Shown: piece after piece, positions 7,034 to 64,000 of the stretch
How the letters are laid out: each line of letters starts with the position of its first letter
Numbering within the stretch: position 1 is the first letter of the stretch
Assembly: GCA_001771505.1 (NCBI GenBank)
Contig: MEUA01000023.1
Coordinates: 2,346-66,345 of the forward strand
Reading direction: 5' to 3'
From: a candidate division WOR-1 bacterium RIFOXYB2_FULL_36_35
GTDB lineage: Bacteria > Margulisbacteria > WOR-1 > XYC2-FULL-46-14 > XYC2-FULL-37-10
DNA length: 64,000 nucleotides
Translations under genes and position numbers: made by a program
The notes under the pieces: generated by a model
What the model was told of the DNA's origin: nothing
Databases searched by the model: none
The model's input: the letters and a program-made list of their open reading frames with translations, nothing else

Positions 7034-7603
7034 ATGCGAGATAAAATTAAATTAGAAATAGAAGAGTCAATTGAAGTTAAAAAGGCCACATTTGAAAAAA
7101 TTATCCCAAAAATAGAAGAAGCTGTAAAACTGATAATTACTGCCATAAAAACAGGAAATAAACTTTTGATCTGCGGTAATGGAGGATCTGCTTCTGATTC
7201 TCAACACTTTGCGGCGGAATTGATCAGCCGGTTTAAAAAAGAGAGGCGCTCAATCTCTGCGGTAGCTTTGACTACTGATACTTCAATTATTACAGCGATT
7301 GGGAATGATTATACTTTTGACAATATTTTTTCAAGGCAGGTTGAAGGCTTAGGGCAAAAGGGTGATATTTTAATCGGAATATCAACCTCAGGAAATTCTA
7401 AAAATATCCTAAAAGCGATTGAAACCGCGAAATTAAGAGAATTAAAAACTATCGCTTTGTTAGGTTGCGACGGAGGACTAATTGCAAAAAAGGCAGATCT
7501 TTCAATAATTGTACCAAGCAACAACACGCCAAGAGTCCAAGAAGTACATATAACAATAATTCATATAATTTGCGGATTAGTCGAAGAGGAGGTAGGTAAA
7601 TAG
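7034..7603 (+). CDS. gmhA: Phosphoheptose isomerase (SIS domain), D-sedoheptulose-7-phosphate isomerase
   Basis: SIS motifs 'CGNGGSASDSQHFAAE', 'GISTSGNS'; ATG at 7034 preferred over the TTG at 7010 in the track. Confidence 0.85.
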   Translation: MRDKIKLEIEESIEVKKATFEKIIPKIEEAVKLIITAIKTGNKLLICGNGGSASDSQHFAAELISRFKKERRSISAVALTTDTSIITAIGNDYTFDNIFSRQVEGLGQKGDILIGISTSGNSKNILKAIETAKLRELKTIALLGCDGGLIAKKADLSIIVPSNNTPRVQEVHITIIHIICGLVEEEVGK

Positions 7604-7644
7604 ATTATCAGACTGATGTTCTGGCATCCTGATATTCTTTAACT

Positions 7645-9111
7645 ATGTTAGAAAGCCATTTAAAAAAAGAACTGCAAAAAATAAAAGGTAAAAAAGTTTT
7701 GGTCTTTGGTGATCTTATGCTTGATGAACATATATGGAGTCACGTTAATCGTATAAGCCCTGAAGCCCCTGTTGTTGTTGCTGACGTTTCCAAGATTACG
7801 CATGTCCCCGGAGGATCTGGAAATGTGGCTAACAATATTTTAACTCTTGGGGGAACCCCTATCCTTGTAGGATTAATCGGCAATGACAGTTCAGGAATTA
7901 AACTTGTACAAGCTTTAAAAATTTTGGGGATAAATGAAAAATATCTTATAAAAAATTCTGAACGCCCGACAATATTAAAATCTAGGCTTATAGCCTCAGG
8001 CCAACAAATTGTTAGAGTTGACAGAGAATTAAAAGAGATTATTTCACATAAACTTTCTAAGAAAATATTGTTGAGAGCAGTTAACCAGATTCGTAAAGTT
8101 GATGCTGTAATAATTTCCGATTACGGCAAAGGGTTAACATCTAAAGAAAACTGTCAAGTAATTATAAGGGCAGCTAACAAGTATAAAAAACCTGTCCTTG
8201 TAGATCCAAAAGGGACAGATTATAAAAAATATGAAGGGGCTACAATAATAACGCCCAATCTAAAAGAAGCTGAAGCTGCTACCAACATCAAAATAAATAG
8301 TGAAAAAGGTTTATTGAAAGCAGGAGAAAAACTGCTGAAAACAATAAACTCCCCTTTTGTTTTAATTACAAGAAGTGAAAAAGGGATGTCTCTTTTTAGA
8401 AAAAAAGAAGAGCCCATTCACATCCCGGGAATTCCTCGCCAGGTTTTTGATATTACAGGAGCTGGCGATACCGTAATTGCAATGTTAGCGTTATCTTTTT
8501 CGTCAGGTATGAAAATTTCCGATGCCGTGCATTTGGCAAATGACGCGGGATCAATTAAAGTTACAAAAATCGCGACTCAACCGGTTTATTATAAAGAGCT
8601 GGAAGATTCTCTAGTAGAAAAAGATCCGGCTTCAAAAAAGATAAAAAACAGAGAAGAGTTAAAAGAGATAGTAAAACAATTAAGATCTTCAGACATGAAA
8701 ATCGTATTTACGAACGGTTGTTTTGATATTTTACATCTTGGACATGTAAGATATTTAAAAGAGGCAAAAAATTTAGGTGATGTTTTAATTGTCGGGTTAA
8801 ACAGTGATGCTTCCGTAAAAAAACTAAAAGGGTTTCCCCGTCCTTACCTACCTGAGCACGAAAGGGCTGAGATTTTAGCTTCTTTAGAAAGTGTTGATTA
8901 TGTGGTGGTGTTTAATGAAAACAGGCCCGATAATTTAATAAAAATAGTAAAACCAGCTTTTCATGTTAAGGGTGGAGATTATAAAATATCCGAACTGCCT
9001 GAAAGAGATATTGTCAAAAAGTTTGGCGGGGAAATTATAGTAATTCCGCCTGTTGAAGGCAAGTCGACGACAAATATCGTAGAAAAAATAAAATCAACAG
9101 CTGGCAATTAA
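7645..9111 (+). CDS. hldE: Bifunctional D-beta-D-heptose 7-phosphate kinase / D-beta-D-heptose 1-phosphate adenylyltransferase
   Basis: N-terminal ribokinase-like domain ('DITGAGDT'), C-terminal cytidylyltransferase ('FTNGCFDILHLGHVRYL'); 488 aa. Confidence 0.9.
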   Translation: MLESHLKKELQKIKGKKVLVFGDLMLDEHIWSHVNRISPEAPVVVADVSKITHVPGGSGNVANNILTLGGTPILVGLIGNDSSGIKLVQALKILGINEKYLIKNSERPTILKSRLIASGQQIVRVDRELKEIISHKLSKKILLRAVNQIRKVDAVIISDYGKGLTSKENCQVIIRAANKYKKPVLVDPKGTDYKKYEGATIITPNLKEAEAATNIKINSEKGLLKAGEKLLKTINSPFVLITRSEKGMSLFRKKEEPIHIPGIPRQVFDITGAGDTVIAMLALSFSSGMKISDAVHLANDAGSIKVTKIATQPVYYKELEDSLVEKDPASKKIKNREELKEIVKQLRSSDMKIVFTNGCFDILHLGHVRYLKEAKNLGDVLIVGLNSDASVKKLKGFPRPYLPEHERAEILASLESVDYVVVFNENRPDNLIKIVKPAFHVKGGDYKISELPERDIVKKFGGEIIVIPPVEGKSTTNIVEKIKSTAGN

Positions 9112-45367: not shown

Positions 45368-46897
45368 ATGGTTTTAAAAAAAGTAGTCTCTTTTAATTTA
45401 GAAAGAGTTGTGGAAAAAGAATCTGCCGCTATCTTGTTATCAGAGCTTGATAAGTTAGATACTACAGATTCTACATCGCTCAACAATTTTTTTGTAAGGA
45501 TCCAAAGATTTGGATTTCCTTTTACTAGAAGTTATTTTAATAGGATGCTTGAAGGAAGAGATTTAACGCCACTTAGAAGCATGCTTCAGAGGTTAATCCC
45601 AAAACCTAAAATTCCTCAACCGACAAGGATACTTCCTTTTGATCCAAGGGATAGAGATACACAAAGAGATATCAGGCAGAAATTTATGGGTATATTAGGC
45701 GATGCAACATTTTATGATGCTATTTTAAGAAGAATTACCCCTGCTTCTATGGACAGAAAAAAAGAAACTAATTCTTTTGAAATTAACACAAAAGCTATCA
45801 TAGAAGAATTAAATAGGCAAGGTAATGATAAATTGGCTGATGCACTTAAGTATGCAGCAATATTTTTGACTCCTGATAGGGAGGATTTAAAAAGATACGT
45901 TGTTGACCATGGCCTTCTAACTGTTGAGGAACTAGATAGGAAGACCTATATAGGAAAGTGCCTTTATGAAGATTGTTTGAGAATATCAACTACAGAAGAG
46001 GCAATAAATATTATAATGACAGAGCTTTGTAATATTTTTGGAAAGAGAGAGTATGTAGAGACAATGCTATTTGCTCATAACATTAATAGCTCATTCATTA
46101 ATTTTAATTCATCTCCGATGAAAATTGCCGAACAATTTGCAACAATGGCAATCCAATCAGGCAAATTACTGAAAATACTGGAAGGATTAAAAGAAATGTA
46201 CCGGGGAAACACAGTTTTAAATAGTTTGTATACTCAATTTAAAGATTTGACTTCAGTTTCAGATTCTCAACCCCGAAGAATACTCCCTTTTGATACAAGG
46301 GATAGAGCTACTAGAATAGAAATAAGAAAAAAATTTATGGATATATTTAGCGATGAAATTTATTTCAACGCAATTTTTAGAAGATTAGCTCCACATCTCC
46401 TTGGCAGGATAGAAAGTGATGTATCAAAAGAAGTTATAGCTAACGATGTAATAACTAAATTAGAAAATGACCTGATTGTCGCGCTCAGATACACCGCAGT
46501 TTTTTTACTCCCTTACAGGCAAGACTTGAGAAATTATCTCCTAGACCACGGGATTCTTACTGAAAGTGATTTGAATCGGTCAAATGTTATAGGACAAACG
46601 TTTTATGAAAGTTGCCTTAGAATCTTAAGAGCAAATGAGGCAATAAATATTATAATGATAGAATTTCCTAATATCTTTGGAAATGAAAATACGGTTAGGC
46701 AACTAGCAGCAAAGATCGGACTTACTTTAAACTTTAACGTAAACCAAGCTCCTATGGAAGTTGCAGCAAAGTTTGCAGAAGAAGCGTGGAACCAAGATAA
46801 ATTGCCAAATTTACTTATAGAGGCAGTAAAAGAAAATCCTGACAATCAAAAGTTAGCAGATTTATCAAGACAGGTACAAAGTTTTAGATACAGATAA
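45368..46897 (+). CDS. Hypothetical protein: ~85 aa N-domain plus two tandem ~210 aa repeats
   Basis: Internal duplication (RILPFDPRDRDTQRDIRQKFM... vs RILPFDTRDRATRIEIRKKFM...); N-domain paralogous to the next gene. Confidence 0.5.
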   Translation: MVLKKVVSFNLERVVEKESAAILLSELDKLDTTDSTSLNNFFVRIQRFGFPFTRSYFNRMLEGRDLTPLRSMLQRLIPKPKIPQPTRILPFDPRDRDTQRDIRQKFMGILGDATFYDAILRRITPASMDRKKETNSFEINTKAIIEELNRQGNDKLADALKYAAIFLTPDREDLKRYVVDHGLLTVEELDRKTYIGKCLYEDCLRISTTEEAINIIMTELCNIFGKREYVETMLFAHNINSSFINFNSSPMKIAEQFATMAIQSGKLLKILEGLKEMYRGNTVLNSLYTQFKDLTSVSDSQPRRILPFDTRDRATRIEIRKKFMDIFSDEIYFNAIFRRLAPHLLGRIESDVSKEVIANDVITKLENDLIVALRYTAVFLLPYRQDLRNYLLDHGILTESDLNRSNVIGQTFYESCLRILRANEAINIIMIEFPNIFGNENTVRQLAAKIGLTLNFNVNQAPMEVAAKFAEEAWNQDKLPNLLIEAVKENPDNQKLADLSRQVQSFRYR

Positions 46898-48593: not shown

Positions 48594-49190
48594 TTACAGT
48601 CCTGAAAATTCAGCAATCCACATTCCAATGCCTGAATGTATAAAACTTATCGCGATAGCAGCAAGGATAATAGTCATAATTCTTCCTATAATCATAGCTC
48701 CATTTTCCCCAAGAGTTTTAAAAATTCTTTCGCCAAAAGACAAAACCAAAACAGAAAGCATAAAATTTATTGTGACAGCAGTTAAAGCAATCGGAGTTCC
48801 GTAAGTTGCCAATGCCACCATAGCTGTCGTAATAGCGCCAGGGCCAGTCAATAATGGACAACCCAAAGGAACAACTCCAACTTCGATTTTTTCTTTTGCC
48901 TGAAACAGTGACCCTCTAACTAAGATAATAATTGCTATAACCAAAATCAATAACCCGCCCGCTATCTTAAAATCAGACATTTGAATCCCAAACAAAGTTA
49001 ATATAAAGTTGCCTAAAAACATAAATATTATAAGCAATGCAAATGAAAAGATCGCGGCGGTTAAAAAGGCTTCGTGCCTCTCTTTTTTATCCAAATCTTT
49101 TGTTATGCTGTAAAAAATAGGCAGATTTCCTATCGCGTCGGTGATTGCAAAAAGTTGCCCCACAACTATAAGCAGGATAGTTAAATTCAT
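48594..49190 (-). CDS. MarC-family (UPF0056) membrane protein
   Basis: 198 aa, 6 TM, MarC-like N-terminal 'AITDAIGNLPIF'. Confidence 0.7.
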   Translation of the reverse strand: MNLTILLIVVGQLFAITDAIGNLPIFYSITKDLDKKERHEAFLTAAIFSFALLIIFMFLGNFILTLFGIQMSDFKIAGGLLILVIAIIILVRGSLFQAKEKIEVGVVPLGCPLLTGPGAITTAMVALATYGTPIALTAVTINFMLSVLVLSFGERIFKTLGENGAMIIGRIMTIILAAIAISFIHSGIGMWIAEFSGL

Positions 49191-50224
49191 CTATTAACTC
49201 CTTTTAAAATATCAAAATTCTTTAAAGCTTTTTCACGAAACTCTTTTTTTATCCTTTTGATATTATTCTTGATTTTTTCTTTTTTTTGCAACGTTTCTAT
49301 AACAATTTTCGTTAAATCATCAAGATTGTTAGGTTTTATGGCAGGAAGATTGGCTTCTTCCATAAAAGAAGAGACTTTCGGATCATAGGTTATCCCTATC
49401 GCAGGAACAAGATGATTTGTCGCAAAAATTAGAGAGTGTAATCGTGTGCCTATAACAAGATCCACCTGAGAAATTATTTTCATTATTCCTTCAAAATTAT
49501 CATGATCTCCCTTTAGTTCGGACTTTTGTTTCATTTTGTGCATTATATTTACACATGAATGGATATCATCTCTCTGATGAAACGGGATGAAAATTATTTT
49601 AGCTTTTAATTTTTTTACTAAATTATCACATATATCAGCAAATTTTTGTTCAAAATTTGAGGGCATATCTTTAAATCTTCTTGGACATATGGCTATGGTT
49701 AGAGAAGTTTTTTGTTTTTTTGTTTTATTCTTTTGTTTTGTAATTTTTGTATTCTTTTTTATGTTGTTTGCTTCTTCTTTGTCAAAAATAAAAGTCGGAT
49801 CAGCCGTCATTATAATTTTAGGTCTTTTCAGTTTTAAGGATTTTACAAAGTCATAAGAGTTTTTGTCTCTCAACGTGATAATATCTGCCAAGTTTAAAGT
49901 TGATTTTATTAATTTAATATTTACTTTTTTCTTAATAGGCCCTATGCTTTGCGCGAAAACAATTACTTTTTTCCCAAAAAACACTTTTGCTGCCCATATT
50001 AAACTTGTATAATAAAGAAGGCTGCGAGTGCTGGTTGCGTCCTGAAGAAGCCCCCCACCGCCGCTTATTAATACATCTGAATTTGAAATAGCTTTTAAAT
50101 TAAGACGATTATGAGCATCAAGAACAGAAATTTGATGATTCTTAAAGCCCTGTTTTATTGCGGCCAAAATCGCTTCATCCCCTGCATTTCCATATCCATA
50201 ATAACCAGATATTGCTAGTTTCAT
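49187..50224 (-). CDS. csaB: Polysaccharide pyruvyl transferase (CsaB-like)
   Basis: 'ISGYYGYGNAGDEAIL' N-terminus typical of the PS_pyruv_trans family; 345 aa. Confidence 0.7.
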   Translation of the reverse strand: MKLAISGYYGYGNAGDEAILAAIKQGFKNHQISVLDAHNRLNLKAISNSDVLISGGGGLLQDATSTRSLLYYTSLIWAAKVFFGKKVIVFAQSIGPIKKKVNIKLIKSTLNLADIITLRDKNSYDFVKSLKLKRPKIIMTADPTFIFDKEEANNIKKNTKITKQKNKTKKQKTSLTIAICPRRFKDMPSNFEQKFADICDNLVKKLKAKIIFIPFHQRDDIHSCVNIMHKMKQKSELKGDHDNFEGIMKIISQVDLVIGTRLHSLIFATNHLVPAIGITYDPKVSSFMEEANLPAIKPNNLDDLTKIVIETLQKKEKIKNNIKRIKKEFREKALKNFDILKGVNR

Positions 50225-50230
50225 AATGTT

Positions 50231-52198
50231 TTAAACCTTTCGGCTTTTTATTAAAACGATAACGGCACTTAATCCTATCACAAGCCCCAAAATTATTCCA
50301 TTAAAAGACCTTACAACAGATACTATAACAGGAGTATGAATGTGACAGTAAGTATTCAAAAAAGATACAGGGCCAATTATCCCAATTGGCAAAAGGATTG
50401 GAAGCCATTTTGTTTTTCCTTTTAAAAATAAAAATGCAGAAACAATTAAAAAAGGATAACCAATCAAAAATTCTTTCGTTCGAGGCCTTATAACAAGCGC
50501 TTTTTCCATGAAAAGACGAAAAACTTTTTCCGCATGCGGGACAGGAAGCGTAAAGTTCCCTGATCTTGCTATAAAGATAAATAACACCCCAAGAGATGTA
50601 AGTCCCAATAAAATGATCCAGATAGGAATGGAAGCCTTGAATATGTTGAAAATTCTTTCTTTAGAGGCTTTTATGTCAAAACCATTTTCTGTTTTGAAAA
50701 AGAAATAAACCGCTGTTATTAAAACTGGAAGTACAAGGGCAATTTTTATCCCCATAAACACTTGTGATCCCATCATAAAAACAGTATTCGACAAAAGGCC
50801 AAGTATTAGAATAATGCCTAAAACTGTGCATATAATGACATTTAAAAAAATAAGAAGAATATCCAATAAAGTTTTTCCCCATCGTTGATCGATTGGTCTT
50901 TGATCTCTTGAAAATTGAGATATCACCGCATATGATGGAAATACTATCGCAGACAAAAGAGCTAAAATTTTTACTAAAATAAAATCTCCCAATTTCATTC
51001 CGATTATCGGCATTAAACCAACTGATATTATCAAAATAATCCAAGCTAGCCAACCTGAAATACAAATAAAATAATTCAATAAAAATAAAAATCCAATTAT
51101 CACCCCTACCCCAAGTAAAATAATTTGCCATCCCGAAGGTTCAAAATTTACAGGCGCTGATGCTCTCCCTATATTAAAACCTGAGGTTTTTATCTTATTG
51201 TTTATGTAAGATATATAATTAAGATTATACAAAACAGGATCAGCAGCTTTAAGCTCGGGAGGAAAAAAAGGTCTAAGATAAAGGAGTCTAACCCCTCTTT
51301 CTTTAACAGCTCTAACCATCCTGTCTACCGCTTCTTCACTTGTTAATTTTTTTATCTCATTTTTCGGAATGCTATGAACGCGAACAATATCTAACCCCAT
51401 CAGCTTTTTTAGCTTTGTATCACCCTCTTGTTTTATTATTTCTATATTTCCATATTTTATGTTATTTGCTTTTAAAGCTTTTGACAAAGAAACGATGCAA
51501 TCAGGGGCTCCCGCGATATCTTCTCCGTCAAATATTATGGTATCAAATTTCTTAAGCAAATTTACTTTATGAATAATTCTGTTGTTTGTGTACCTTGAGT
51601 CATTCCATATCCTCGGGATAATTCTAAAACCTTTTTCCTTTATTTCTTTTTCCAGGGTTTCTGAAAATCCTATCCCGACCTCATCAAGAGCTGCCTCTTT
51701 CTGGTTAAGAAGCAGGGTATTTTTTGAAACAATCTTCCCCACTCCTGAATCGGTTATTGTCGAAATATTGTCCGCTATCCTATTTAAAATACCAGCGTTT
51801 TTAGCAATTAAAAAAGTTTGTTCTTTTTCAACTTTTCTTTCTTTCACAAGTTTTGAGATTTTAGGGCTTTCGGTAGGATTGTTTTTCAAGCCTTGTCCTG
51901 TTACATAATAAATTTCTCCGTTTATGTTTGCCTGGGGCAAAGTCTCCTCTTTTATCCCTATGGATATAATCCCTCTTTTTTTTATTTCTGTTAAAAGGTT
52001 ATCGAGTGAAACTGTTTTATGCTCCTCATTTTTAATTGAAGACAAAACCATTAAATCATCATAATCCATTACAAGCTCAACTGTTTTGCTAGATGATTCT
52101 ATGTTGTGTCGCACAAAAACAAGGTAAGAACCCGTTAAAATAGCTATTGCTAAGATTATTAATAATAGGACTTTTGTTAGTTTGTTCATTTTTTTCAC
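50231..52198 (-). CDS. Large polytopic membrane protein (possibly DUF5693-like, csaB-associated)
   Basis: 655 aa; N-terminal periplasmic-looking domain plus >10 TM helices; gene immediately upstream of csaB. Confidence 0.4.
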   Translation of the reverse strand: MKKMNKLTKVLLLIILAIAILTGSYLVFVRHNIESSSKTVELVMDYDDLMVLSSIKNEEHKTVSLDNLLTEIKKRGIISIGIKEETLPQANINGEIYYVTGQGLKNNPTESPKISKLVKERKVEKEQTFLIAKNAGILNRIADNISTITDSGVGKIVSKNTLLLNQKEAALDEVGIGFSETLEKEIKEKGFRIIPRIWNDSRYTNNRIIHKVNLLKKFDTIIFDGEDIAGAPDCIVSLSKALKANNIKYGNIEIIKQEGDTKLKKLMGLDIVRVHSIPKNEIKKLTSEEAVDRMVRAVKERGVRLLYLRPFFPPELKAADPVLYNLNYISYINNKIKTSGFNIGRASAPVNFEPSGWQIILLGVGVIIGFLFLLNYFICISGWLAWIILIISVGLMPIIGMKLGDFILVKILALLSAIVFPSYAVISQFSRDQRPIDQRWGKTLLDILLIFLNVIICTVLGIILILGLLSNTVFMMGSQVFMGIKIALVLPVLITAVYFFFKTENGFDIKASKERIFNIFKASIPIWIILLGLTSLGVLFIFIARSGNFTLPVPHAEKVFRLFMEKALVIRPRTKEFLIGYPFLIVSAFLFLKGKTKWLPILLPIGIIGPVSFLNTYCHIHTPVIVSVVRSFNGIILGLVIGLSAVIVLIKSRKV

Positions 52199-54901: not shown

Positions 54902-56422
54902 GTGAATTTATTGAAAGTTTCTACGGGTTATAAAAAACCACCAATGTTAGTAGTTTTAGCAGGAGGGTTGGGCAGCAGGCTTGCACCTATTACAATTTGT
55001 GAAAAATCTTCCCAAAAAATAAGCGGAACAAGAATCTACAATTCTAACGCTTTTCCCAAACCCCTTCTCCCTCTTGGAGGAATGATTCCTCTTATGCAAC
55101 CTCTTATAGATACAATAAAAAGTGAATGTGAAATTGATCGCACAGCAATGGTGCTTATGTATATGCCGGAAGATTTTAGGCAATATTATGGAAATTCTGT
55201 TGAATATTTTTGGGATCATCAAGTAGAAAGAAATGTTAATCTTGATACAGCTGGTTGTATTTTAGAGGGATGGAATAGTGATATAAGAGGAAGTTTAGAT
55301 ATACCCGCTAATTACATAATACCCTCCGGAGATATAAGGGCTAAAATAAATACTAGAGAGATGTATGACTTGCATGTTAAAAACAACGCCTTGGCTACTA
55401 TCGCTCTTGCACCTGTGCAATGGCATGAAGTTGGAAGGTTTGGAACTGTTGTAAGGGAAGGAGACATAAGGGATATAAATACTGACAGGTTTAGTCTGTA
55501 TCTTGGACAAAAATTCTCTAGAATTCTTGAGTTTAAAGAAAAGACCCCTCACTCTCCAAGTAATTTAAATAATGCGTCAATATATATTATCAGCAAAAGA
55601 TTGTTTGATTTAATAGTGGACGATGTGGATTTTCTTATAGATGATTCATTTCCACACAGGCCAAATGAGATTAAATTATCCGAAGGCAGACGTAAAAGAT
55701 TGGGAGTTTTTTCTTCTTATCTAAAAGGAGAAGGGCTAATAAAGAAAGGGCAAGTCAACCCGAATTTTTCTGATTGGGGGAGACATATATTTCCAGATAT
55801 CATAGAACGTCCACAAATTTATGGACAACAGGAAGCAAATGATCCCGAAGGGTTATACGGGTTTGTTTTTGACGGTTTGTGGTCGGATGACGGAACAAAA
55901 CTTGCTCTTTGGCGCTCAAATATGGAATTACTTGCAGGAATGGGTGGAGTTTTTGGGAATTCTGATTTTTCATGGTGGCCCAAACCTGAAAATATAATAA
56001 AAGGTAACAATGGTTTGCCTGTATGGTATGGAAATAATGTGAAAATATCAAAATCATCAACATTACTAGGACCAACAATTATCGGAGATAATGTTACTAT
56101 TGAAGACAATTCAATAGTAGCCTCTTCCGTCATAGGTTCAGGATGGACTATCGCTTACGGCTCAGAAATAACATCAAGCGCTCTATACCCTGATCGTAAA
56201 TTTTTAGGGCTTGTGGCAGATAACAGACATTTAGAATATAGTGTAAAGAATAAACAGATATATGGTTCTTTAATTGGAAGCGGATTCCCAAAAAATGGCT
56301 CTGTTTTTTTAGTTCCCAATAGCGGAGCCAAATTTAGTTTTTCTGATGGAATTGCAAGAATTGAAAAAGGTGTTATTGTTGCAACAGACTCCATGTTAAT
56401 AATAGACGGTTTCATTCAATAA
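54902..56422 (+). CDS. Sugar-phosphate nucleotidyltransferase with C-terminal left-handed beta-helix (hexapeptide) domain
   Basis: 'LAGGLGSRLAPIT' NTP-transferase motif; C-terminal 'IIGDNVTIEDNSIVASSVIGSGWTI' hexapeptide repeats; start ambiguous (GTG 54902 / TTG 54911 / ATG 54944). Confidence 0.7.
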   Translation: MNLLKVSTGYKKPPMLVVLAGGLGSRLAPITICEKSSQKISGTRIYNSNAFPKPLLPLGGMIPLMQPLIDTIKSECEIDRTAMVLMYMPEDFRQYYGNSVEYFWDHQVERNVNLDTAGCILEGWNSDIRGSLDIPANYIIPSGDIRAKINTREMYDLHVKNNALATIALAPVQWHEVGRFGTVVREGDIRDINTDRFSLYLGQKFSRILEFKEKTPHSPSNLNNASIYIISKRLFDLIVDDVDFLIDDSFPHRPNEIKLSEGRRKRLGVFSSYLKGEGLIKKGQVNPNFSDWGRHIFPDIIERPQIYGQQEANDPEGLYGFVFDGLWSDDGTKLALWRSNMELLAGMGGVFGNSDFSWWPKPENIIKGNNGLPVWYGNNVKISKSSTLLGPTIIGDNVTIEDNSIVASSVIGSGWTIAYGSEITSSALYPDRKFLGLVADNRHLEYSVKNKQIYGSLIGSGFPKNGSVFLVPNSGAKFSFSDGIARIEKGVIVATDSMLIIDGFIQ

Positions 56423-56435
56423 TCCATACATATTT

Positions 56436-57035
56436 TCATCCAAAATGTCTTACGCTATAAGGCCCTCCCCTTCTTTGCGGCAGTTTCTTTATACTTATAA
56501 CCTCCCCTTCTTTTGCTGCACCTGATTTTTGTTTTCTTGCATATTCTGCCATTCCATGTATTTTAATTTGCTTGTCTGTAAAAGATAAAATCTTTTCGGC
56601 CAATTGTGTTTGCGTTTCTAAAACTGCGCTTAAATCAATTTTTTTTGATAAATGAAAGTCAATCAATACAGTATAATTATCTCTTGGATCTTTTGTATAT
56701 TCTAAAAGAAAAGAACCTAAAAAAGATAAAAGGGTAGAAATATGCTCAGTTTTAAATAAGTTGGTTGTCACTATTGTAAATTCAGGGACATCTTTACCAA
56801 AAGCTACATCAAAATATCTAATTAATACTTTTATTAACTGGTTCTTGCTTAAATTGTTCTCAAAATGATTTTTAAAGGCATTAGCTTCATTTAAAGTTCT
56901 CGGGAATGAAAGAGGTTGGGGATTAGCAGAATCAATATGCTTTACCCAATATCCGCTTCTTTTCGGGGGATTTGTACTATTTGTTGCTTTTATTATAGCC
57001 ATATAAATTGTTTTCTTCGCTAGATAAAACTTCAA
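56436..57035 (-). CDS. Hypothetical protein (199 aa)
   Basis: ORF only; downstream of the NRAMP-related gene. Confidence 0.35.
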   Translation of the reverse strand: MKFYLAKKTIYMAIIKATNSTNPPKRSGYWVKHIDSANPQPLSFPRTLNEANAFKNHFENNLSKNQLIKVLIRYFDVAFGKDVPEFTIVTTNLFKTEHISTLLSFLGSFLLEYTKDPRDNYTVLIDFHLSKKIDLSAVLETQTQLAEKILSFTDKQIKIHGMAEYARKQKSGAAKEGEVISIKKLPQRRGGPYSVRHFG

Positions 57036-57042
57036 CCATTTG

Positions 57043-57068
57043 AACCCCGATTATGATAATCGGGGTGA
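57043..57068 (+). repeat. Palindromic repeat, single-hairpin copy L (GAACCCCGATTATGATAATCGGGGTGAAGTC)
   Basis: 8 nt upstream of the start of 56436..57035. Confidence 0.75.
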
Positions 57069-57122
57069 AGTCTATCTAATTTAAGATCATGTATTTTAAC
57101 AGATTATTTCATATGATAATAA

Positions 57123-58370
57123 TCAAAAGAAGGTTAAATAGAGCATGATACATGATATGATAGTAAATCCGCTAATTGTAAGCCATGCAATAAAATTATT
57201 GATGGGTCCATTGATATATTGCTGCATTAATTTTTTATCATTTATTAATTTAAGAACTACAATAAAAATTATAGGCAATAATAAAGTATTTAAAGCCTGC
57301 GATACTACAATAACTAGTATCATTGGAAATTTTGGGAACAACACAAATATAGAGCTTAAAATAAGACAAAACATCATTATGGAATAGAAAATTGGAGCTT
57401 CAAAAAAAGAGGCCTTAACTTTTCTCTCCGTGCCCAAAACTTCTGTTAAAGTATAGGCTGTTCCCATGGAGATAACGCTCGCACCCAATAATGAAGCATT
57501 TAGCAATCCCCACGCAAAAAGATGCTTTGATAAAGGTCCCAACAATGGTTTTATTGCAAGTGCGGCATCAAGGGCGGTTCTTATATGAATGCCTTTTGTA
57601 AAAAGAGTTGCCGCGGCAGAAATCATAATAAAATAAGCAACAAAATCCGTCCAAAATGAACCCATAAAGACATCAAGTTTTGCTGACTGTAAATATTTTT
57701 TGGGTGTTCCTTTATCAACGAAATAAGATTGGATGAAAAATTGTCCCCATACTGTTAAAGTTGTCCCGATTAGAGCTGTCATTGTGAATATATAATCTCT
57801 ATTTAATTGAACTGTTGGGATTAGACTTCCCTGTATCATCGCGTGCAAATCAGGTTTTGCTATGAAACCATTTATTATGTAGCAGAAAAACAACACAGCA
57901 GATGTCATAAAAATGTTTTGTACAAAATTAAAACTTCCTTTTATAATCACATATAAAATCAAAAAAACAAATAGTGGAACAAAAATAAGCCGTGGTACAT
58001 GATAAATATCAGCAACGGAAGCAATCCCAGCAACATTAGCTAAAATATTAGCAAAGTTGACCAAAAAAACCAAAGAAATAAGAGAGACCGCAAAAGGCAA
58101 ACCAAAACGTTCTCGAATAAGATCCCCTAACCCCTTTCCTGTAACAATTCCCAACCTTGCCCCCATCTCTTGTGTTATATAAAGCATAAATGTAATAACA
58201 ATTAAAAGCCACAACATCTGATAACCATAATGCGCGCCCGCAACAGAATAAGTTGCAATGCCGCCGGCATCGTTATCTGCCGTACCTGTAATAATTCCGG
58301 GACCGACAACAGAAAAAAACATTAACCATTTTAATTTCCAAAATTTTATTTTTTTAAAAAAGTTATGCAT
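57123..58370 (-). CDS. NRAMP (SLC11)-related cation transporter with non-canonical metal-site residues
   Basis: Clear alignment to MntH TM1-TM2 ('GPG...AGAHYGYQMLW...GIVTGKGLGDLIRE'); canonical DPGN replaced by DAGG, and the TM6 'MPH' motif replaced by 'TVW'. Confidence 0.8.
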   Translation of the reverse strand: MHNFFKKIKFWKLKWLMFFSVVGPGIITGTADNDAGGIATYSVAGAHYGYQMLWLLIVITFMLYITQEMGARLGIVTGKGLGDLIRERFGLPFAVSLISLVFLVNFANILANVAGIASVADIYHVPRLIFVPLFVFLILYVIIKGSFNFVQNIFMTSAVLFFCYIINGFIAKPDLHAMIQGSLIPTVQLNRDYIFTMTALIGTTLTVWGQFFIQSYFVDKGTPKKYLQSAKLDVFMGSFWTDFVAYFIMISAAATLFTKGIHIRTALDAALAIKPLLGPLSKHLFAWGLLNASLLGASVISMGTAYTLTEVLGTERKVKASFFEAPIFYSIMMFCLILSSIFVLFPKFPMILVIVVSQALNTLLLPIIFIVVLKLINDKKLMQQYINGPINNFIAWLTISGFTIISCIMLYLTFF

Positions 58371-58373
58371 AAA

Positions 58374-59645
58374 TTATCCAAGCATTTGCCTTTTTCTTCT
58401 TGATACAGGAGGTAAAATAAAATCAACAACATCATCAACTGTTACAATTCCTAACATTTTATTGCTATCGTCAACAACCGGAACAGCTAATAAATTATAT
58501 TTAGAAATTACGTGTGCCACTTCTCGTGCATCCGTTTCCGCTTTTGTTGTAATTGGGGTTTTAATCATGATTGTTGAAATTATTACATCTGAAGCATTTA
58601 TAATTAAACTGCGAAGGCTTAAAACACCAATTAACTTTTCATCATTGTCTACAACATATAAATAATAAATAGTTTCAGCTGAAGGACCTTTATCTCTTAA
58701 GTAATTTATAGTCTCTTCCACAGTATAAGTTTGAGGCAAAGCGATAAATTCAGTAGTCATAAGCCCTCCAGCTGTTTCATCCCCATGCCTTAAAAGTTTC
58801 CTTATTTCCAAGGATTTTTTAGGTTTTATAAGCCTTAAGAACTCTTCACATTTTTCAGAAGAGACATCACCTAGTATATCCGCAGCTTCATCTATAGGCA
58901 TTTTTTCAAGTATTCTTAAAGCCTTCTTGGTATCTATTGTTTGCACTATCATAGCTCCAATGTGAGGTTCAAGCTCATGCAAAGATTCGGAAGCTGTTTG
59001 TTCATCTAAAGAATCAAATATAGCGGTCTTTTCGGCAGAATGCACCTGGCTTATTATTTGCGCTATATCCGCAGGATGAAGTTCTGCTGTTCTGTGATGA
59101 GGAATTGTAATTAATCCTTTAGAAGTTCCGGTTTTTAATGATTCAACATGATCCCAACCTATCAAATTTTCCGAAAGTTTTTTGCCGAAAATCGTAAATA
59201 CCCAGGATATAAATTTTTCCAGTCCAATCCTTCTAAAAAAACCTGAAAACCCTATATCAGCGGCAATAAGCCTGATATCTTGTTGAACCAAAGCAAGCTT
59301 AAGGTCATTCACCCTAATTACTCGAGCGCCATCTATATCTACAATTTGTTTATCTACCACATTTTCAAACAATTTAACTTCCTCGGGCCTATGTGAAGTA
59401 AAAGTTAAGCGATCTTTTACATATTTAGTTGCTACAAATTTTTTGCCTATAAGTTCAACTTCAGATAATAACAAAACAACTTCTTTGTTATCAATTTTCT
59501 TTTTAATTAAAAGGCTTATAACTCTGGGGAATTTATCTCCCAAAACAACAAAAACATCTTTTACCCCTCCGACAGGTTCCTGTAACCGATCGACAACAGG
59601 AATCCCTATTAATTCGGATAAATACATCTCTGTAAACAAAACCAT
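58374..59645 (-). CDS. Soluble PRC-barrel + MgtE-N + tandem CBS domain protein (MgtE cytoplasmic module without the membrane domain)
   Basis: MgtE-N-like helical region followed by a CBS pair ('LLAVPVVDDSNKMLGIVTVDDVVDFI'); no TM helices; 4 nt from the NRAMP-related gene. Confidence 0.7.
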   Translation of the reverse strand: MVLFTEMYLSELIGIPVVDRLQEPVGGVKDVFVVLGDKFPRVISLLIKKKIDNKEVVLLLSEVELIGKKFVATKYVKDRLTFTSHRPEEVKLFENVVDKQIVDIDGARVIRVNDLKLALVQQDIRLIAADIGFSGFFRRIGLEKFISWVFTIFGKKLSENLIGWDHVESLKTGTSKGLITIPHHRTAELHPADIAQIISQVHSAEKTAIFDSLDEQTASESLHELEPHIGAMIVQTIDTKKALRILEKMPIDEAADILGDVSSEKCEEFLRLIKPKKSLEIRKLLRHGDETAGGLMTTEFIALPQTYTVEETINYLRDKGPSAETIYYLYVVDNDEKLIGVLSLRSLIINASDVIISTIMIKTPITTKAETDAREVAHVISKYNLLAVPVVDDSNKMLGIVTVDDVVDFILPPVSRRKRQMLG

Positions 59646-59687
59646 GATAAAATTAATTATAACATATTTTAAAACATTAAAATTTAA

Positions 59688-59775
59688 CCCCGATTATTCA
59701 TAGACGAACAGAATTTTAGCAGAGTGTTGGAAATTTTCCCAGGTATGAACCCCGATTTTCTAATCGGGGTTCATA
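59688..59775 (-). repeat. Palindromic repeat element copy M, long subtype, reverse orientation
   Basis: Reverse complement matches copies A/B/H including CTAGAATTCTGTTCGTCTAT. Confidence 0.85.
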
Positions 59776-59805
59776 CTTAGATAAAGAAAAATCGGCTTTA
59801 TGGGA

Positions 59806-59847
59806 CTGTTGCAAAATGTTAAATTTCTGTGTGACATTTCGCAACAG
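59806..59847. repeat. Short hairpin copy of the CTGTTGCAAAATG/CATTTCGCAACAG inverted-repeat element (16-nt loop, no core insert)
   Basis: 12/13-bp stem; same arms as 45167..45307; 25 nt downstream of the porin-like gene stop. Confidence 0.6.
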
Positions 59848-59871
59848 GGCATTTATAGGTCTTCTGATGGT

Positions 59872-60840
59872 TTACCATTTTCCTATAAGTGATATTCTAT
59901 GTACATTTTCCATACTTAGAGACGTTTGGCCAACATACGCATAATCCAGTTGAGTGGTAAAATATTCATTGTTTTTTGCTGAAAATCCAATCCCGCCCGT
60001 AAAGGATGAGGTTTCCAGCCAGCCCATTCTTAGCGCTAAAAGATTATTTTTCCATTCATAACCAAACGACAGTTCTGCAGGATATTTTCGGGATATTTTC
60101 TGAGAAAGATCAAACGCAAAAATAGATCCTTCAGGTAAAATGTTTAAATTTTCTAAAGCTATTCCCAGTTTTAATTTGGGGATGCTTTTTTCTGTTGTGC
60201 CTGTCCCCCATTTTTGTTCGTTTAAAAGATCTTCTAGTGTAAAGCCTATTTTTCCTATATTTTTACTATCGCTTATTAATTTATAAAGAAGTCCGGGCGT
60301 TACAGAAAATCCAGTAGCTTGCCCCTGGTTTACCGATGTCATATCAGACGTTAAATACTTGGCTGTTAATCCAACGCCAAAGCTGTTTGTTAATGGCAAT
60401 CCGTAAGACAAAAGATAAACATTACTAAAATAGGAAAAAATATTGGTAGTTATCACTTCATTAAAGGCGTCAGTCGTCGTCGTTTGTGTAATATCTCCCA
60501 AAGAAATTTGTATCCATGAAAGGCCCAGCGCGCCTTTTAAAAAAGGTGTTACATAGCTTATATAATAGTGATCCGCATCTGTGGACATTCGTGTTTGCAT
60601 TGATTGTAATTCGCTTGTTGTAATAAACGATAATCCTGCCGGATTATAATAAGAGGCATCAGAGTTGTCAGAAATTGCAGTAAAAGCGCATCCCATCCCA
60701 AGAGGCCGTGCGCCGACTTTTGCCGACAACACATCGATGTCCACGCCTCCCACTTCCGCCACAGACCCAACCGTTAACAGTGTACAGTTTACAGTGTACA
60801 GTAAAAACAAAAAGACAAAATACTTTAAAAATAATTTCAT
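59872..60840 (-). CDS. PorV/PorQ-family-like (FadL-fold) outer-membrane beta-barrel, second paralog
   Basis: 'AKVGARPLGMGCAFTAISDNSDASYYNPAGL' N-terminal motif; C-terminal aromatic; directly downstream of the large CTD-bearing protein. Confidence 0.55.
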   Translation of the reverse strand: MKLFLKYFVFLFLLYTVNCTLLTVGSVAEVGGVDIDVLSAKVGARPLGMGCAFTAISDNSDASYYNPAGLSFITTSELQSMQTRMSTDADHYYISYVTPFLKGALGLSWIQISLGDITQTTTTDAFNEVITTNIFSYFSNVYLLSYGLPLTNSFGVGLTAKYLTSDMTSVNQGQATGFSVTPGLLYKLISDSKNIGKIGFTLEDLLNEQKWGTGTTEKSIPKLKLGIALENLNILPEGSIFAFDLSQKISRKYPAELSFGYEWKNNLLALRMGWLETSSFTGGIGFSAKNNEYFTTQLDYAYVGQTSLSMENVHRISLIGKW

Positions 60841-60960
60841 AAAACAAAACCCCTTTTTATGTTTACAGTTTACTGTTTACCGTGTACAGTAAAAACACAA
60901 ATACAAAAAAACTTGCAAACAAATTTTATTGATTTACTGTAAACTGTACACTCTCTTTAT

Positions 60961-63900
60961 TTACTTGAGCAGCGCAATTTTCCCTCTTCCCGACACTGAT
61001 TGACCATTTAAGGTTGCTAGTACTTCAAACGGATAAATCCCGTTTATAACCATATCTCCTCTTGCGTTGCGACCGTCCCAAGGAACATCATTATACTTTT
61101 GCCAAATATTTGAAGCTTCTCCATATGGCAATCCGTCTAGTTCGACAACAAGCCTGCCTGTAATATCATAAATTCTGATACAAACATCATCGACATCCTT
61201 TCCAAGTTTGTATCTAATTTTTGTGCTTTCTTTGTTAGGATTAAACGGATTTGGATAATTTGTAATACCAGCCAATGTTAATGGGGGATCAACTTCAAAA
61301 GACCGGATATCAGAAGAAGCTTCTGTTGTTGTATTGGAGTCTGACACAACTTTCCAATACCATATCCCGCGAGAAAGGCCCTCATCAAATTCATGAATAG
61401 AGTAAGCAATTATAGGATCAGAAGTATTAATAGGAGTAGCCTCTGTTTGCGTAATAATTTTATCAAACGATCTTGAAGATATTTCAAGCAGGTTTGGCAT
61501 TTGGCTTAAAATCAATTTATAATTTTTTCTCCCTTTAATCCCCTGCCATTTGAAAGTAGGGCGAAGGGTTGTAACTATTGCACCGTCGTCAGGCGCAAGT
61601 AGAATTGGCTTTGTATTTTGCGCCAAAGCTTCGATAGATGAGATGAGTTTTACGTTATTTAAAGATGATGCTGTTACTGTCCCGTTAACGGAAGCAAAGT
61701 TTGATGGGATTTTTTGGAAGTAGATTTGATTTGCTCCGCTTCTTGTATCTTGCCATGATATGTAAGCATTGTTATATTGATCAACACAAATTGCTGGATT
61801 ATATCCTGACTGTCCAATCAAAATGGATGGAGAATTATTTCTTTTATAATAAATATTACCATCGCTTGCCCAAACTGAATGTTGCCCTGATGAAGTTGGG
61901 CCTGTTGTATAAGAATCTACTGTCAGAGGGGATGATGTAGCAGCTTCTTCTATGTTATCTTCATATTCGGGAGGACAAGTTTTTTGATATTCAAACAATT
62001 TAAAATCACTATATTCAATTCCTAAAGAAGCATAAGAAGTAGCAGCACTAGAACTGTACGCATCTTTTATAGAAATATAAAAAGTGTATTCCCCCTTGCT
62101 TAAAGAAACAGTTTCGTTTAAATTGTAAGAAGAAGTAGTCATATCTCCTGTCTCCCAAATGTTATTGTATTGATTATAAGAATAGAAAACCCCATTCACT
62201 AGTGAATTATTTCCCTGAACAAAAGCATAAGAAAATGCTGCATAAAGATTTTTTTCATATACATTTATCCCAGCAGAATTTTTTATGATATACCAAACTT
62301 CTCCACATTGAGGGGGAACCATTCCTACCTCCAGATAACCACTCATATTTAATTTGATTTGCTGGTCAGAATCAATATAAACAGTTAAGCTTTTATCGAT
62401 AAAAAACTCAGAAAATGAAAGGTTAGAAAAACTTTCTGTTTTTGATTGAATATCATTTCCATTTATCCAACTTAAAATTAAATTATTTCCACTTATTGTT
62501 AGAGAAGGACTCTCTCCAACTTCAATATACTGATCATCCTGTAAACTTGTGTCACAAGTCGTATTGCTCGAAAAATTTCCTACACTATCACTTGCCGTTA
62601 TCTTTAAGCGATAATTTCCTTCGTTGACATAATCTCCCGCGTTATTCATTCCTGTCCAATTAATAGAATAACTTGGATAACTTCCTGAAACAGGTAAATC
62701 TTTTATGAGTGTCCCGTCTGTTGTCTTTTCGATCCGTGCCGTTACTGCACCTATTCCAGAACCACCGCTATTATTTACACTAAAGCTCAACGATAATGAA
62801 TTTAAATATGGATTAAAAGTTTTATCCTCTGGCGGCGTAATACTCGGCGCCGTAATATCCCTCCAATAGTCCTTTTGCGTTGATTGAATATTCCCCGCCT
62901 CATCCCATCCTTTTACATACAAGGTTCTCATTCCCTCCCCGGGATGAGAGGTAGTTCCTGTAGCCGAAGTATTGCATCCTGTTGAATCGTCTGTCGGCAT
63001 ACTATCCCAACTCCATTTAAAACCTTTATAGCTTAAATTATCTGCCAATGAAACTGTGATAGCATTGTTTCCACTATACCAAACGTCCGGGGCTTGCCCT
63101 CCAAATGAGATCGTAGGAGCAGTAACATCTCTTTTATAGACTCTCGACTCTTCATATTTATTACCCGCCCAATCCCATGCTTTAAGATAAAGAGTCCTTT
63201 CTCCCTCCCCTGGATGATTATTTGTCCCTGTGGTTGATAAAATACACTCTGACGTATCATCTGAGGGAGGTGTATCCCAATTCCATTTAAAACCTTTTAA
63301 ATTAATATCGCTCAAATTTATATTTATCGCATTGTTCCCTGTATACCAAGTATTAGCCGCCTGTCCGCTCCATAAAACATCAACATTATCTGTATCTAAA
63401 ATAACGAAAGAAGAATACTCACCATAATTCCCTGCATTATCAACAAATTGCACATAAACTCGCTTCTCTCCATCGCCCGCCGTCAAATTCCACGACTTGG
63501 TAGAAGCTAAACTCTCCCAGTTATTCCAATTTGTGCCATCATTACTAAATCTCATCGTGTCTTCTATTCCGCTTAACATATCCGAATAGGTTAATGCAAG
63601 CGTAACCGAAGAAGAATTAATGTAATACTTGCCGCTATTGTAATTGGCAGAAGAAAATGTAACTTCTCCTGAAGGCTCTGTCCTGTCAACAATCGCTTCT
63701 CCCGCTACCTCAACATAATTTTCTGCAACATCCTTCACGTAAATTTTATAGGTATATTTTCCATCCTTATCTATCCCCTGGTTGCTCCACACATTGCTGT
63801 AAGAAGCATTGGAGGGCAGAGTTGCTGTTGATTGCAAACTTCCTGTCGCAACCCCATCGTTTGAAATATCGATATCCACTTCAACTGTGTTTAGATTATC

Positions 63901-64000
63901 ATTCACTGAATATGAAAGAAGGGTAGAATCCTTCACCCCTGAACCGTCTGGAGAAAAATAATACTCGCTTAAAATATTTTCAGAAACAGAAGGGAGAGTG
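60961..64000 (-). CDS. Very large secreted multi-domain (Ig-like/adhesin-like) protein with T9SS type-A C-terminal sorting domain; N-terminus truncated by the window edge
   Basis: Frame stays open from the annotated GTG (63936) to position 64000; internally repeated ~90-aa modules ('GFKWNWD..PSDD..HPGEG.RTLY.K.WD.AGN'); C-terminus 'YPNPFNPNKESTKIRY...IRIYDITGRLVVEL...WDGRNARGDMVINGIY'. Confidence 0.75.
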   Translation of the reverse strand, partial: TLPSVSENILSEYYFSPDGSGVKDSTLLSYSVNDNLNTVEVDIDISNDGVATGSLQSTATLPSNASYSNVWSNQGIDKDGKYTYKIYVKDVAENYVEVAGEAIVDRTEPSGEVTFSSANYNSGKYYINSSSVTLALTYSDMLSGIEDTMRFSNDGTNWNNWESLASTKSWNLTAGDGEKRVYVQFVDNAGNYGEYSSFVILDTDNVDVLWSGQAANTWYTGNNAININLSDINLKGFKWNWDTPPSDDTSECILSTTGTNNHPGEGERTLYLKAWDWAGNKYEESRVYKRDVTAPTISFGGQAPDVWYSGNNAITVSLADNLSYKGFKWSWDSMPTDDSTGCNTSATGTTSHPGEGMRTLYVKGWDEAGNIQSTQKDYWRDITAPSITPPEDKTFNPYLNSLSLSFSVNNSGGSGIGAVTARIEKTTDGTLIKDLPVSGSYPSYSINWTGMNNAGDYVNEGNYRLKITASDSVGNFSSNTTCDTSLQDDQYIEVGESPSLTISGNNLILSWINGNDIQSKTESFSNLSFSEFFIDKSLTVYIDSDQQIKLNMSGYLEVGMVPPQCGEVWYIIKNSAGINVYEKNLYAAFSYAFVQGNNSLVNGVFYSYNQYNNIWETGDMTTSSYNLNETVSLSKGEYTFYISIKDAYSSSAATSYASLGIEYSDFKLFEYQKTCPPEYEDNIEEAATSSPLTVDSYTTGPTSSGQHSVWASDGNIYYKRNNSPSILIGQSGYNPAICVDQYNNAYISWQDTRSGANQIYFQKIPSNFASVNGTVTASSLNNVKLISSIEALAQNTKPILLAPDDGAIVTTLRPTFKWQGIKGRKNYKLILSQMPNLLEISSRSFDKIITQTEATPINTSDPIIAYSIHEFDEGLSRGIWYWKVVSDSNTTTEASSDIRSFEVDPPLTLAGITNYPNPFNPNKESTKIRYKLGKDVDDVCIRIYDITGRLVVELDGLPYGEASNIWQKYNDVPWDGRNARGDMVINGIYPFEVLATLNGQSVSGRGKIALLK

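Follow-up and report, generated by a model that had tools for sequence, protein, structure and literature searches.

We analysed a 64,000-nucleotide (nt) stretch of DNA from the candidate division WOR-1 bacterium RIFOXYB2_FULL_36_35 (contig MEUA01000023.1, positions 2,346 to 66,345), hereafter called the window. At positions 57123-59645 it carries a predicted carrier gene of the NRAMP-related Mg2+ transporter (NRMT) type, preceded by a gene for a soluble protein (hereafter the partner) that joins a PRC-barrel-type module to the cytosolic domains of MgtE Mg2+ channels. We hold, with slightly more confidence than doubt, that the two genes form an operon for divalent-cation uptake, in which the partner serves in trans as a Mg2+ feedback sensor that brakes the NRMT. 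The gene pair itself has been known since 2014, and the window adds an example from a Margulisbacteria-type lineage. The pair consists of the following elements.

57123..58370, minus strand: NRMT-type carrier gene, 415 amino acids (aa), matching Pfam Nramp and EleNRMT, the NRMT of Eggerthella lenta
58374..59645, minus strand: soluble partner gene, 423 aa, with a PRC barrel, MgtE_N and a CBS pair and without a membrane domain
58371..58373, minus strand: spacer of 3 nt from the partner stop codon to the NRMT start codon (TAA ttt ATG)

In the window sequence, the stop codon TAA of the partner gene occupies 58374-58376 and the ATG of the NRMT gene 58368-58370, leaving 3 nt between them rather than the 4 nt given in an earlier note on this DNA. 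With such a spacer, translational coupling of the partner and the NRMT is probable.

The carrier and its metal site

The membrane protein had been described in the earlier note as an Nramp relative in which the metal-coordinating TM1 Asn and TM6 Met/His (TM, transmembrane segment) are replaced, and our searches bore this out. The open reading frame (ORF) at 57123-58370 matched the Pfam Nramp profile PF01566 with E=6e-80 over 356 of the 357 profile positions. Its best match in the PDB was EleNRMT (7qia; E=1.3e-77, 35% identity over 398 aa with one gap), whereas canonical Nramp/MntH structures in the PDB gave only E=4e-20 to 1e-13, and the NCBIfam MntH models scored 116 bits against a cut-off of 430. 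Two motifs define the predicted metal site.

58260..58271, minus strand: TM1 metal-site motif D34-A-G-G37 (DxxG), with Gly in place of the Nramp Asn
57747..57764, minus strand: TM6 motif T203-T-L-T206-V-W208 (TxxT), with Thr for the Nramp Met and Trp for the first TM6b His

The counterparts in canonical Nramps are DPGN in TM1 and A..MPH in TM6. The DAGG motif was invariant in two of our alignments (A1 and A3), and both TM6b histidines were gone, with W208 and I213 at their positions, where EleNRMT has W and N. Alignment with EleNRMT, which had been suggested as a check on the NRMT-type substitutions, yielded the signature DxxG/TxxT. According to Ramanadane et al. (2022, PMC8806188), the NRMT signature is DxxG-TxxA/T, as against DxxN-A/CxxM in classical Nramps, the NRMT site is widened and all-oxygen, EleNRMT transports Mg2+ and Mn2+ without H+ coupling, and a Gln in alpha10 is essential in EleNRMT. 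This Gln is kept in the window carrier as Q358. The window carrier shares with EleNRMT the fold, the DxxG motif of TM1, the Thr in TM6, the alpha10 Gln and the loss of the TM6b histidines, but it has TxxT rather than TxxA, with GTTLTVWGQ instead of GTTIAPWMM in TM6. Judged from these alignments, the carrier is of the NRMT type, closer to the NRMT clade than to canonical Nramp/MntH proteins, and its predicted binding site is without a soft ligand.

Position 113 in TM3, close to the metal site, is acidic in EleNRMT (Glu133) and in most Margulisbacteria-type relatives (Asp), but it is Asn in the window carrier and in two relatives, P0121 and P0233.

The partner and its regulatory sites

The partner was predicted to comprise four parts.

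59136..59645, minus strand: N-terminal beta-rich PRC-barrel-type module, residues 1-170
58779..59081, minus strand: helical MgtE_N domain, residues 189-289, carrying E220, D252 and D256
58416..58763, minus strand: CBS pair, residues 295-410, carrying D405, D408 and N384
58377..58415, minus strand: C-terminal basic tail LPPVSRRKRQMLG, in place of the MgtE plug helix (Mg2/Mg3 sites)

Pfam matches were obtained for PRC (PF05239) at residues 5-72, with 23.1 bits against a cut-off of 21.2, for MgtE_N (PF03448) at residues 189-289 with E=1.6e-21, and for the two CBS domains with E=9e-21. The protein ends 13 residues past the CBS pair. Since it had no match to the pore family PF01769, and matched the NCBIfam mgtE model TIGR00400 only at positions 28-251 of 450, with 188 bits against a cut-off of 233, the partner is not an MgtE channel, and the earlier description of a PRC, MgtE_N and CBS protein without a pore holds. 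It matched the MgtE cytosolic domain (PDB 2yvy) with E=9e-41. The E-values obtained for the two proteins lie far outside what chance would give. An AlphaFold2 model (pLDDT 80) showed the beta-rich N-terminal module, the helical MgtE N domain and the CBS pair, and 2yvy was also the top PDB match of this model in Foldseek (1.8e-20).

To characterize the predicted sensor, we mapped the regulatory sites of Thermus thermophilus MgtE (Maruyama et al. 2018) on the 2yvy alignment and counted the residues in 41 diverse partners.

Mg4, D91 of MgtE: D252 in the partner, Asp in 40 of 41
Mg4, D247: D405, Asp in 41 of 41
Mg6, D95: D256, Asp in 41 of 41
Mg7, E59: E220, acidic in 37 of 41
Mg5, D226: N384, Asn in 33 of 41, so that Mg5 is half lost
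Mg5, D250: D408, acidic in 27 of 41
Mg2, E258, and Mg3, D259 (plug helix): no counterpart in the partner

Because the ligands of Mg4, Mg6 and Mg7 are kept, Mg2+ sensing by the partner is plausible. The earlier note had proposed a module that senses both Mg2+ and nucleotides, and it is the second half of this proposal that became doubtful. Among the ATP ligands of MgtE, Y170 and R187 are kept as Y328 and R345; D188 is replaced by Ser, N203 by Ile361 and the adenine-stacking F227 by Leu385. Leu stood at the F227 position in 55 of 56 close partners and in 37 of the 41 diverse ones, and the F227A mutation in MgtE abolishes ATP binding (Tomita et al. 2017). With F227 and N203 replaced in this way, adenine-nucleotide sensing by the partner is not supported.

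Compared with T. thermophilus MgtE (2yvx/2yvy), the partner has a homologous N domain and CBS pair with the acidic ligands of Mg4, Mg6 and Mg7, but it lacks the plug helix, the five-helix pore and the Mg2/Mg3 sites, its adenine pocket is replaced, and about 170 aa at its N-terminus form an additional PRC-barrel module that is also present in some true MgtE channels.

Three further interpretations of the partner were considered and rejected. An origin of the N-terminal module as tandem PRC barrels by internal duplication received an hhalign probability of 0.5%; the PRC-type module itself has its support from fold search only. Decay of an mgtE fragment does not agree with a protein that is intact, keeps about 60-72% identity among more than 100 cluster representatives and has invariant functional residues. 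The C-terminal basic tail cannot be a universal docking peptide, as it is missing in partners from the candidate phyla radiation (CPR) and acidic in those coupled to DUF1003.

In Eggerthellaceae the partner is 447-450 aa long, unlike the 423-aa window protein, and has a hydrophobic end; in one copy (L084:2644-3996; 450 aa) this C-terminal end reads GAVLFLVLYTMALFQIIGYDWR and could be a membrane anchor.

Co-occurrence of the partner and the NRMT

The genome search that the earlier note had recommended was carried out with an NRMT alignment as the query and one genome per species. It returned 40 loci, 37 of them with usable upstream sequence. As the scan relied on two peptide patterns, the most distant relatives in it had 45% identity, and the Clostridium and Acidobacterium loci were missed. 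The partner gene lay directly 5' of the NRMT gene on the same strand in 33 of the 37 loci and was complete in 29 of these (401-475 aa). The spacing in the 33 loci ranged from -4 to +56 nt; values between -4 and +22 nt were typical, and most were 1-11 nt. Labels of the metagenome-assembled genomes with paired loci included Margulisiibacteriota, Saganbacteria, Peregrinibacteria, Gracilibacteria, Uhrbacteria, Armatimonadota, Omnitrophota and Deltaproteobacteria. The tight coupling and co-occurrence anticipated from the single locus were thus found across phyla.

A metagenome scan with the partner as the query gave the same picture: all five full-length relatives (L005-L009) had an NRMT gene immediately downstream, and the matches at 26-37% identity over approximately residues 185-423 only were true MgtE channels with 2-6 (mostly 5-6) hydrophobic segments. 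In an annotated plasmid collection, 19 records, several of them near-duplicates, contained a near full-length non-channel cassette, and 17 of the 19 had a same-strand Nramp-family match within about 650 bp. The order was partner-carrier in 11 and carrier-partner in 6, and the NDAGG and GTT[IV]APW motifs were present in every plasmid carrier inspected.

A relative of EleNRMT with 91% identity, from Paraeggerthella (Eggerthellaceae), has a 447-450-aa PRC, MgtE_N and CBS gene 4 nt upstream. The only structurally characterised NRMT therefore belongs to the same kind of operon; EleNRMT was characterised without its partner. In the operon of Alicyclobacillus fastidiosus, an M-box (RF00380) was detected upstream at 145 bits, which also served as the positive control for our riboswitch scan.

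Two of the plasmid-borne loci deserve separate description. On the A. fastidiosus plasmid NZ_CP104068.1 (L082:2410-5197), a complete M-box is followed by the PRC, MgtE_N and CBS gene and then by the NRMT gene; transposase and recombinase genes flank this unit. The host is a cultured bacterium, and the locus would be a convenient experimental system for the pair. In Citrobacter freundii pPSV (L083:577-6638), and likewise in Serratia marcescens CP068396.1, the NRMT gene comes first, with the CBS protein encoded 193 nt downstream. These pairs are located on IncHI1B-type conjugative plasmids of Enterobacterales and have genes for an ArsR/SmtB regulator and a heavy-metal P-type ATPase as neighbours; such neighbours hint that this copy has a role in metal stress rather than in Mg2+ supply.

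The cassette on other membrane proteins

A full-library search with the N-terminal 185 residues of the partner gave 1041 cluster representatives at E<=1e-3. Among the best 150 of these, 66 were 395-460 aa long with 0-2 hydrophobic segments (56 with none) and represent the soluble form; another 66 were shorter than 395 aa and are probably mostly fragments. Fifteen were 590-660 aa long, 14 of them with 5-6 C-terminal hydrophobic segments, two were 461-589 aa and one was 1314 aa. The pore family PF01769 was matched in three of the four scanned long proteins with hydrophobic C-terminal segments. Pfam and NCBIfam identify the proteins of about 600 aa as MgtE channels with a PRC module in front. In these channels (P0256, P0270, P0280, P0307 and ten more), the N-terminal module comprises about 180 aa and is missing in the solved MgtE structures.

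The 1314-aa protein (P0341; Logan assemblies, two contigs) carries the cassette N-terminal to an MgtA-type Mg2+ P-type ATPase (TIGR01524, 1120 bits, cut-off 611). It stands for one cluster only, so that an artefact of assembly or gene calling is possible. No mention of a cassette-MgtA fusion was found in the literature searched. In actinobacterial replicons of Nonomuraea gerenzanensis (L088:3498-5181) and Tsukamurella tyrosinosolvens (L089:3501-5314), the membrane-protein gene coupled to the cassette is not an NRMT gene but a DUF1003 gene, whose start the cassette gene overlaps. The DUF1003 protein (PF06210, 1e-35 to 1e-39) has 160-175 aa and two TM segments. The overlap suggests that DUF1003 is another membrane partner of the cassette and possibly a cation-transport protein.

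The earlier note had held that a partner found generally beside unrelated genes would speak against a dedicated NRMT regulator. The cassette is not exclusive to NRMT: distant members are joined covalently to MgtE pores and to MgtA, or are encoded in overlap with DUF1003. On this comparison, the cassette is best described as a portable module, and all its partners with an assignable substrate are Mg2+ uptake systems. This is the strongest new argument for a Mg2+-related regulator that acts directly on membrane transporters. A more general reading, which we advance tentatively and to which we give slightly less than half of our credence, is that of a portable Mg2+-sensing cassette which bacteria have fused or translationally coupled to four or more unrelated membrane proteins (the pore of MgtE, the P-type ATPase MgtA, the NRMT carrier and the uncharacterised DUF1003), with its PRC barrels docking on them.

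Relation to known systems

The combination of the two genes had been thought undescribed; however, Shin et al. (2014, PLoS Genet, PMC4072509) reported that most NrmT genes are preceded by a gene for an MgtE cytoplasmic domain, and speculated on cytoplasmic feedback regulation or chaperone activity for this MgtE fragment. They found an M-box riboswitch in a subset of NrmT operons and took it as a marker of Mg2+ specificity. As in their operons (Clostridium acetobutylicum Ca_c0685/Ca_c3329 and Acidobacterium capsulatum Acp2976-Acp2977), the window carrier belongs to an Nramp-related outgroup and is encoded immediately 3' of the MgtE-cytoplasmic-domain gene; in those operons the partner is dispensable for transport. 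Unlike Ca_c0685, the window locus has no M-box; unlike the split partner of C. acetobutylicum, the window partner is a single 423-aa gene; and the window host belongs to an uncultured Margulisbacteria-type lineage. The PRC-barrel module is not mentioned by Shin et al., whose Clostridium and Acidobacterium operons we compared by their published description. No later study of the NRMT partner was found in the literature searched (CBS, PRC-barrel with MgtE, DUF1003).

A CBS pair acting as an allosteric cytoplasmic sensor on a transporter is also known from OpuCA/ProV, ClC and CNNM/CorB/CorC (Foldseek matches; review PMC10710835). In those systems, the CBS domains are inside the transporter or the ATPase subunit and usually sense nucleotides or ionic strength, whereas the CBS pair of the window is on a separate polypeptide with MgtE-type Mg2+ sites.

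Proposed mechanism and alternative readings

Regulation in trans, as suggested by the earlier note, is in our view the most reasonable reading of the pair, and it may be envisaged as follows. The NRMT, a LeuT-fold relative of SLC11 proteins, would accept largely hydrated Mg2+, and also Mn2+, at its widened all-oxygen site, with uptake driven by the membrane potential and not coupled to protons, by analogy with EleNRMT. An uncoupled, potential-driven carrier would require feedback, and the NRMT has no cytosolic domain of its own. The partner, as a soluble cytoplasmic sensor, would close at millimolar Mg2+ like the cytosolic domain of MgtE; the closed form would then bind the carrier from the cytoplasmic side, possibly with the PRC barrels as docking element, and brake transport, giving the NRMT the negative feedback that MgtE and CorA carry built in. 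In the fold search, the N-terminal module of the partner matched the PRC-barrel domain of the reaction-centre H subunit. That domain sits on the cytoplasmic face of its membrane partners, and the docking proposal was made by analogy with it. Neither in vivo nor in proteoliposomes do NRMTs need the partner for transport, and this agrees better with a regulator than with a core subunit.

In this brake model, the physical interaction, the binding of Mg2+ by the partner and the direction of regulation are inferred. Several observations weigh against it. Glu133 in TM3 of EleNRMT corresponds to Asn113 in the window carrier, and, according to the EleNRMT report (PMC8806188), binding-site residues alone are insufficient to confer Mg2+ transport. 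In the partner, Mg5 is half lost and Mg2 and Mg3 have no counterparts, and the basic tail SRRKRQMLG, kept in the Margulisbacteria-type clade, is limited to certain clades. Four of the 37 related NRMT loci have no adjacent partner. An Rfam scan of 56000-62000 at E<=10 detected no M-box (RF00380) and no other riboswitch, and no M-box reached the gathering threshold in 11 related loci; nothing therefore ties the window locus itself to Mg2+. Co-expression of Acp2976 and Acp2977 brought no further gain in the rescue of a Mg2+-uptake mutant (PMC4072509); this assay scored improved rescue, which an inhibitor would not give, and the result is consequently not strongly against a brake. The A. capsulatum NrmT behaved as a Mn2+ transporter in the same study. 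The substrate of the window carrier may thus be Mn2+ as well as Mg2+, and the hard-cation specificity for Mg2+ proposed earlier is not established, given the Mn2+ transport by EleNRMT, the behaviour of the A. capsulatum NrmT and the missing M-box.

It is accordingly conceivable, although we regard it as unlikely, that the carrier is mainly an importer of Mn2+ or another transition metal and that the partner responds to Mn2+ or some other signal. The A. capsulatum NrmT, which has a partner and, as here, no riboswitch, rescued a Mn2+-uptake mutant fully and a Mg2+-uptake mutant partly; together with the Mn2+ transport by EleNRMT, the lack of an M-box at the window locus and the position of the Citrobacter/Serratia copy beside an ArsR regulator and a heavy-metal P-type ATPase, this argues for such an importer. 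However, the other cassette partners with an assignable substrate are Mg2+ transporters (the MgtE pore and MgtA), an M-box controls the homologous Alicyclobacillus operon, conservation in the partner falls on the residues of the MgtE Mg2+ sites, and the predicted binding site of the carrier has no soft ligand.

Shin et al. raised the alternative that, rather than gating the carrier, the partner chaperones or buffers the metal in the cytoplasm after receiving the ion from the carrier, or else aids the assembly or stability of the carrier. This would agree with its several conserved acidic metal sites and with the production of both proteins from one coupled operon. We consider it improbable, since the same domains act as a gate in MgtE, and allosteric control would account for the fusion to pore and pump domains better than the hand-off of an ion. 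Mg2+, moreover, is free in the cell at millimolar concentration and needs no chaperone. PRC barrels also occur in RimM, in ribosome maturation, and in archaeal CdpB, in cell division, and the partner might likewise act elsewhere while the operon only coordinates expression. Such an unrelated role is very improbable: the adjacency has been kept in many phyla, with either order of the genes and also on plasmids, and the covalent fusions to MgtE and MgtA point to a direct functional connection with membrane transporters.

Genomic context of the operon

The same two-gene arrangement was found in independent assemblies of the window organism (L001-L004; groundwater and metagenome contigs), and the NRMT gene was identical on contigs L001 and L003. 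The exact window NRMT sequence was absent from the protein-search matches, the best of which had 72% identity; we take this to be a database quirk. Close homologues of both proteins came from Candidatus Margulisiibacteriota, Saganbacteria and WOR-1 genomes. In contig L002 of the same organism (positions 7276-8471; ANAN16 sample), the NRMT gene is broken into ORFs of 231 and 180 aa, owing either to a frameshift error or to inactivation of the carrier in a variant of the population.

The surroundings of the pair are those of an ordinary chromosome, with alanyl-tRNA synthetase and DnaB encoded farther off. Upstream of the operon are the following features.

59646-59871, minus strand: intergenic region with a perfect 15-bp inverted repeat at 59743-59776, 3' of the outer-membrane-protein gene
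59872-60840, minus strand: outer-membrane-protein gene, 322 aa, beta-barrel-like, with weak UPF0164/PorV/FadL similarity
60961-63936, minus strand: C-terminal 991 aa of a giant surface protein with FlgD-Ig/Big repeats, up to 2858 aa on contig L004

The 15-bp hairpin at 59743-59776 stands between the operon and the genes for outer-membrane and surface proteins. Scans for promoter and terminator consensus sequences around the operon gave scores no better than those of shuffled sequence. Downstream of the NRMT gene lie a lineage-specific ORF of 188/199 aa and a nucleotidyl-transferase gene. The ORF at 56436-57035 was rejected as a third gene of the operon, as it matched no Pfam family and its homologues among the related loci were confined to the same organism.

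Two other regions of the window were noted. The 509-aa protein encoded at 45368-46897 (plus strand) has a C-terminal Effector-associated domain 1 (EAD1, 2.4e-9) as its sole Pfam match; this domain is typical of conflict and signalling systems, and the ORFs beside it had no Pfam matches. At 49187-52198 (minus strand), a PS_pyruv_trans/CsaB-like polysaccharide pyruvyl transferase gene adjoins a gene for a full-length DUF5693 protein (E=7e-145), and this pair is probably a cell-surface polymer module.

Implications

The window locus alone changes little. An uncoupled, potential-driven Mg2+ carrier would need a brake, and NRMTs have no cytosolic domain. Our survey turns the speculation of 2014 into a specific, testable model through the strictly conserved Mg4 and Mg6 ligands, the lost adenine pocket and the occurrence of the cassette in fusion with MgtE and MgtA and in coupling with DUF1003. 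The survey further makes DUF1003 a candidate for a cation-transport protein. The portable-sensor reading with its four membrane partners is the part that merits follow-up: if it is true, a sensor derived from a channel would gate a secondary carrier, the NRMT, in trans, and the prediction for DUF1003 would be a new transport protein for Mg2+ or divalent cations.

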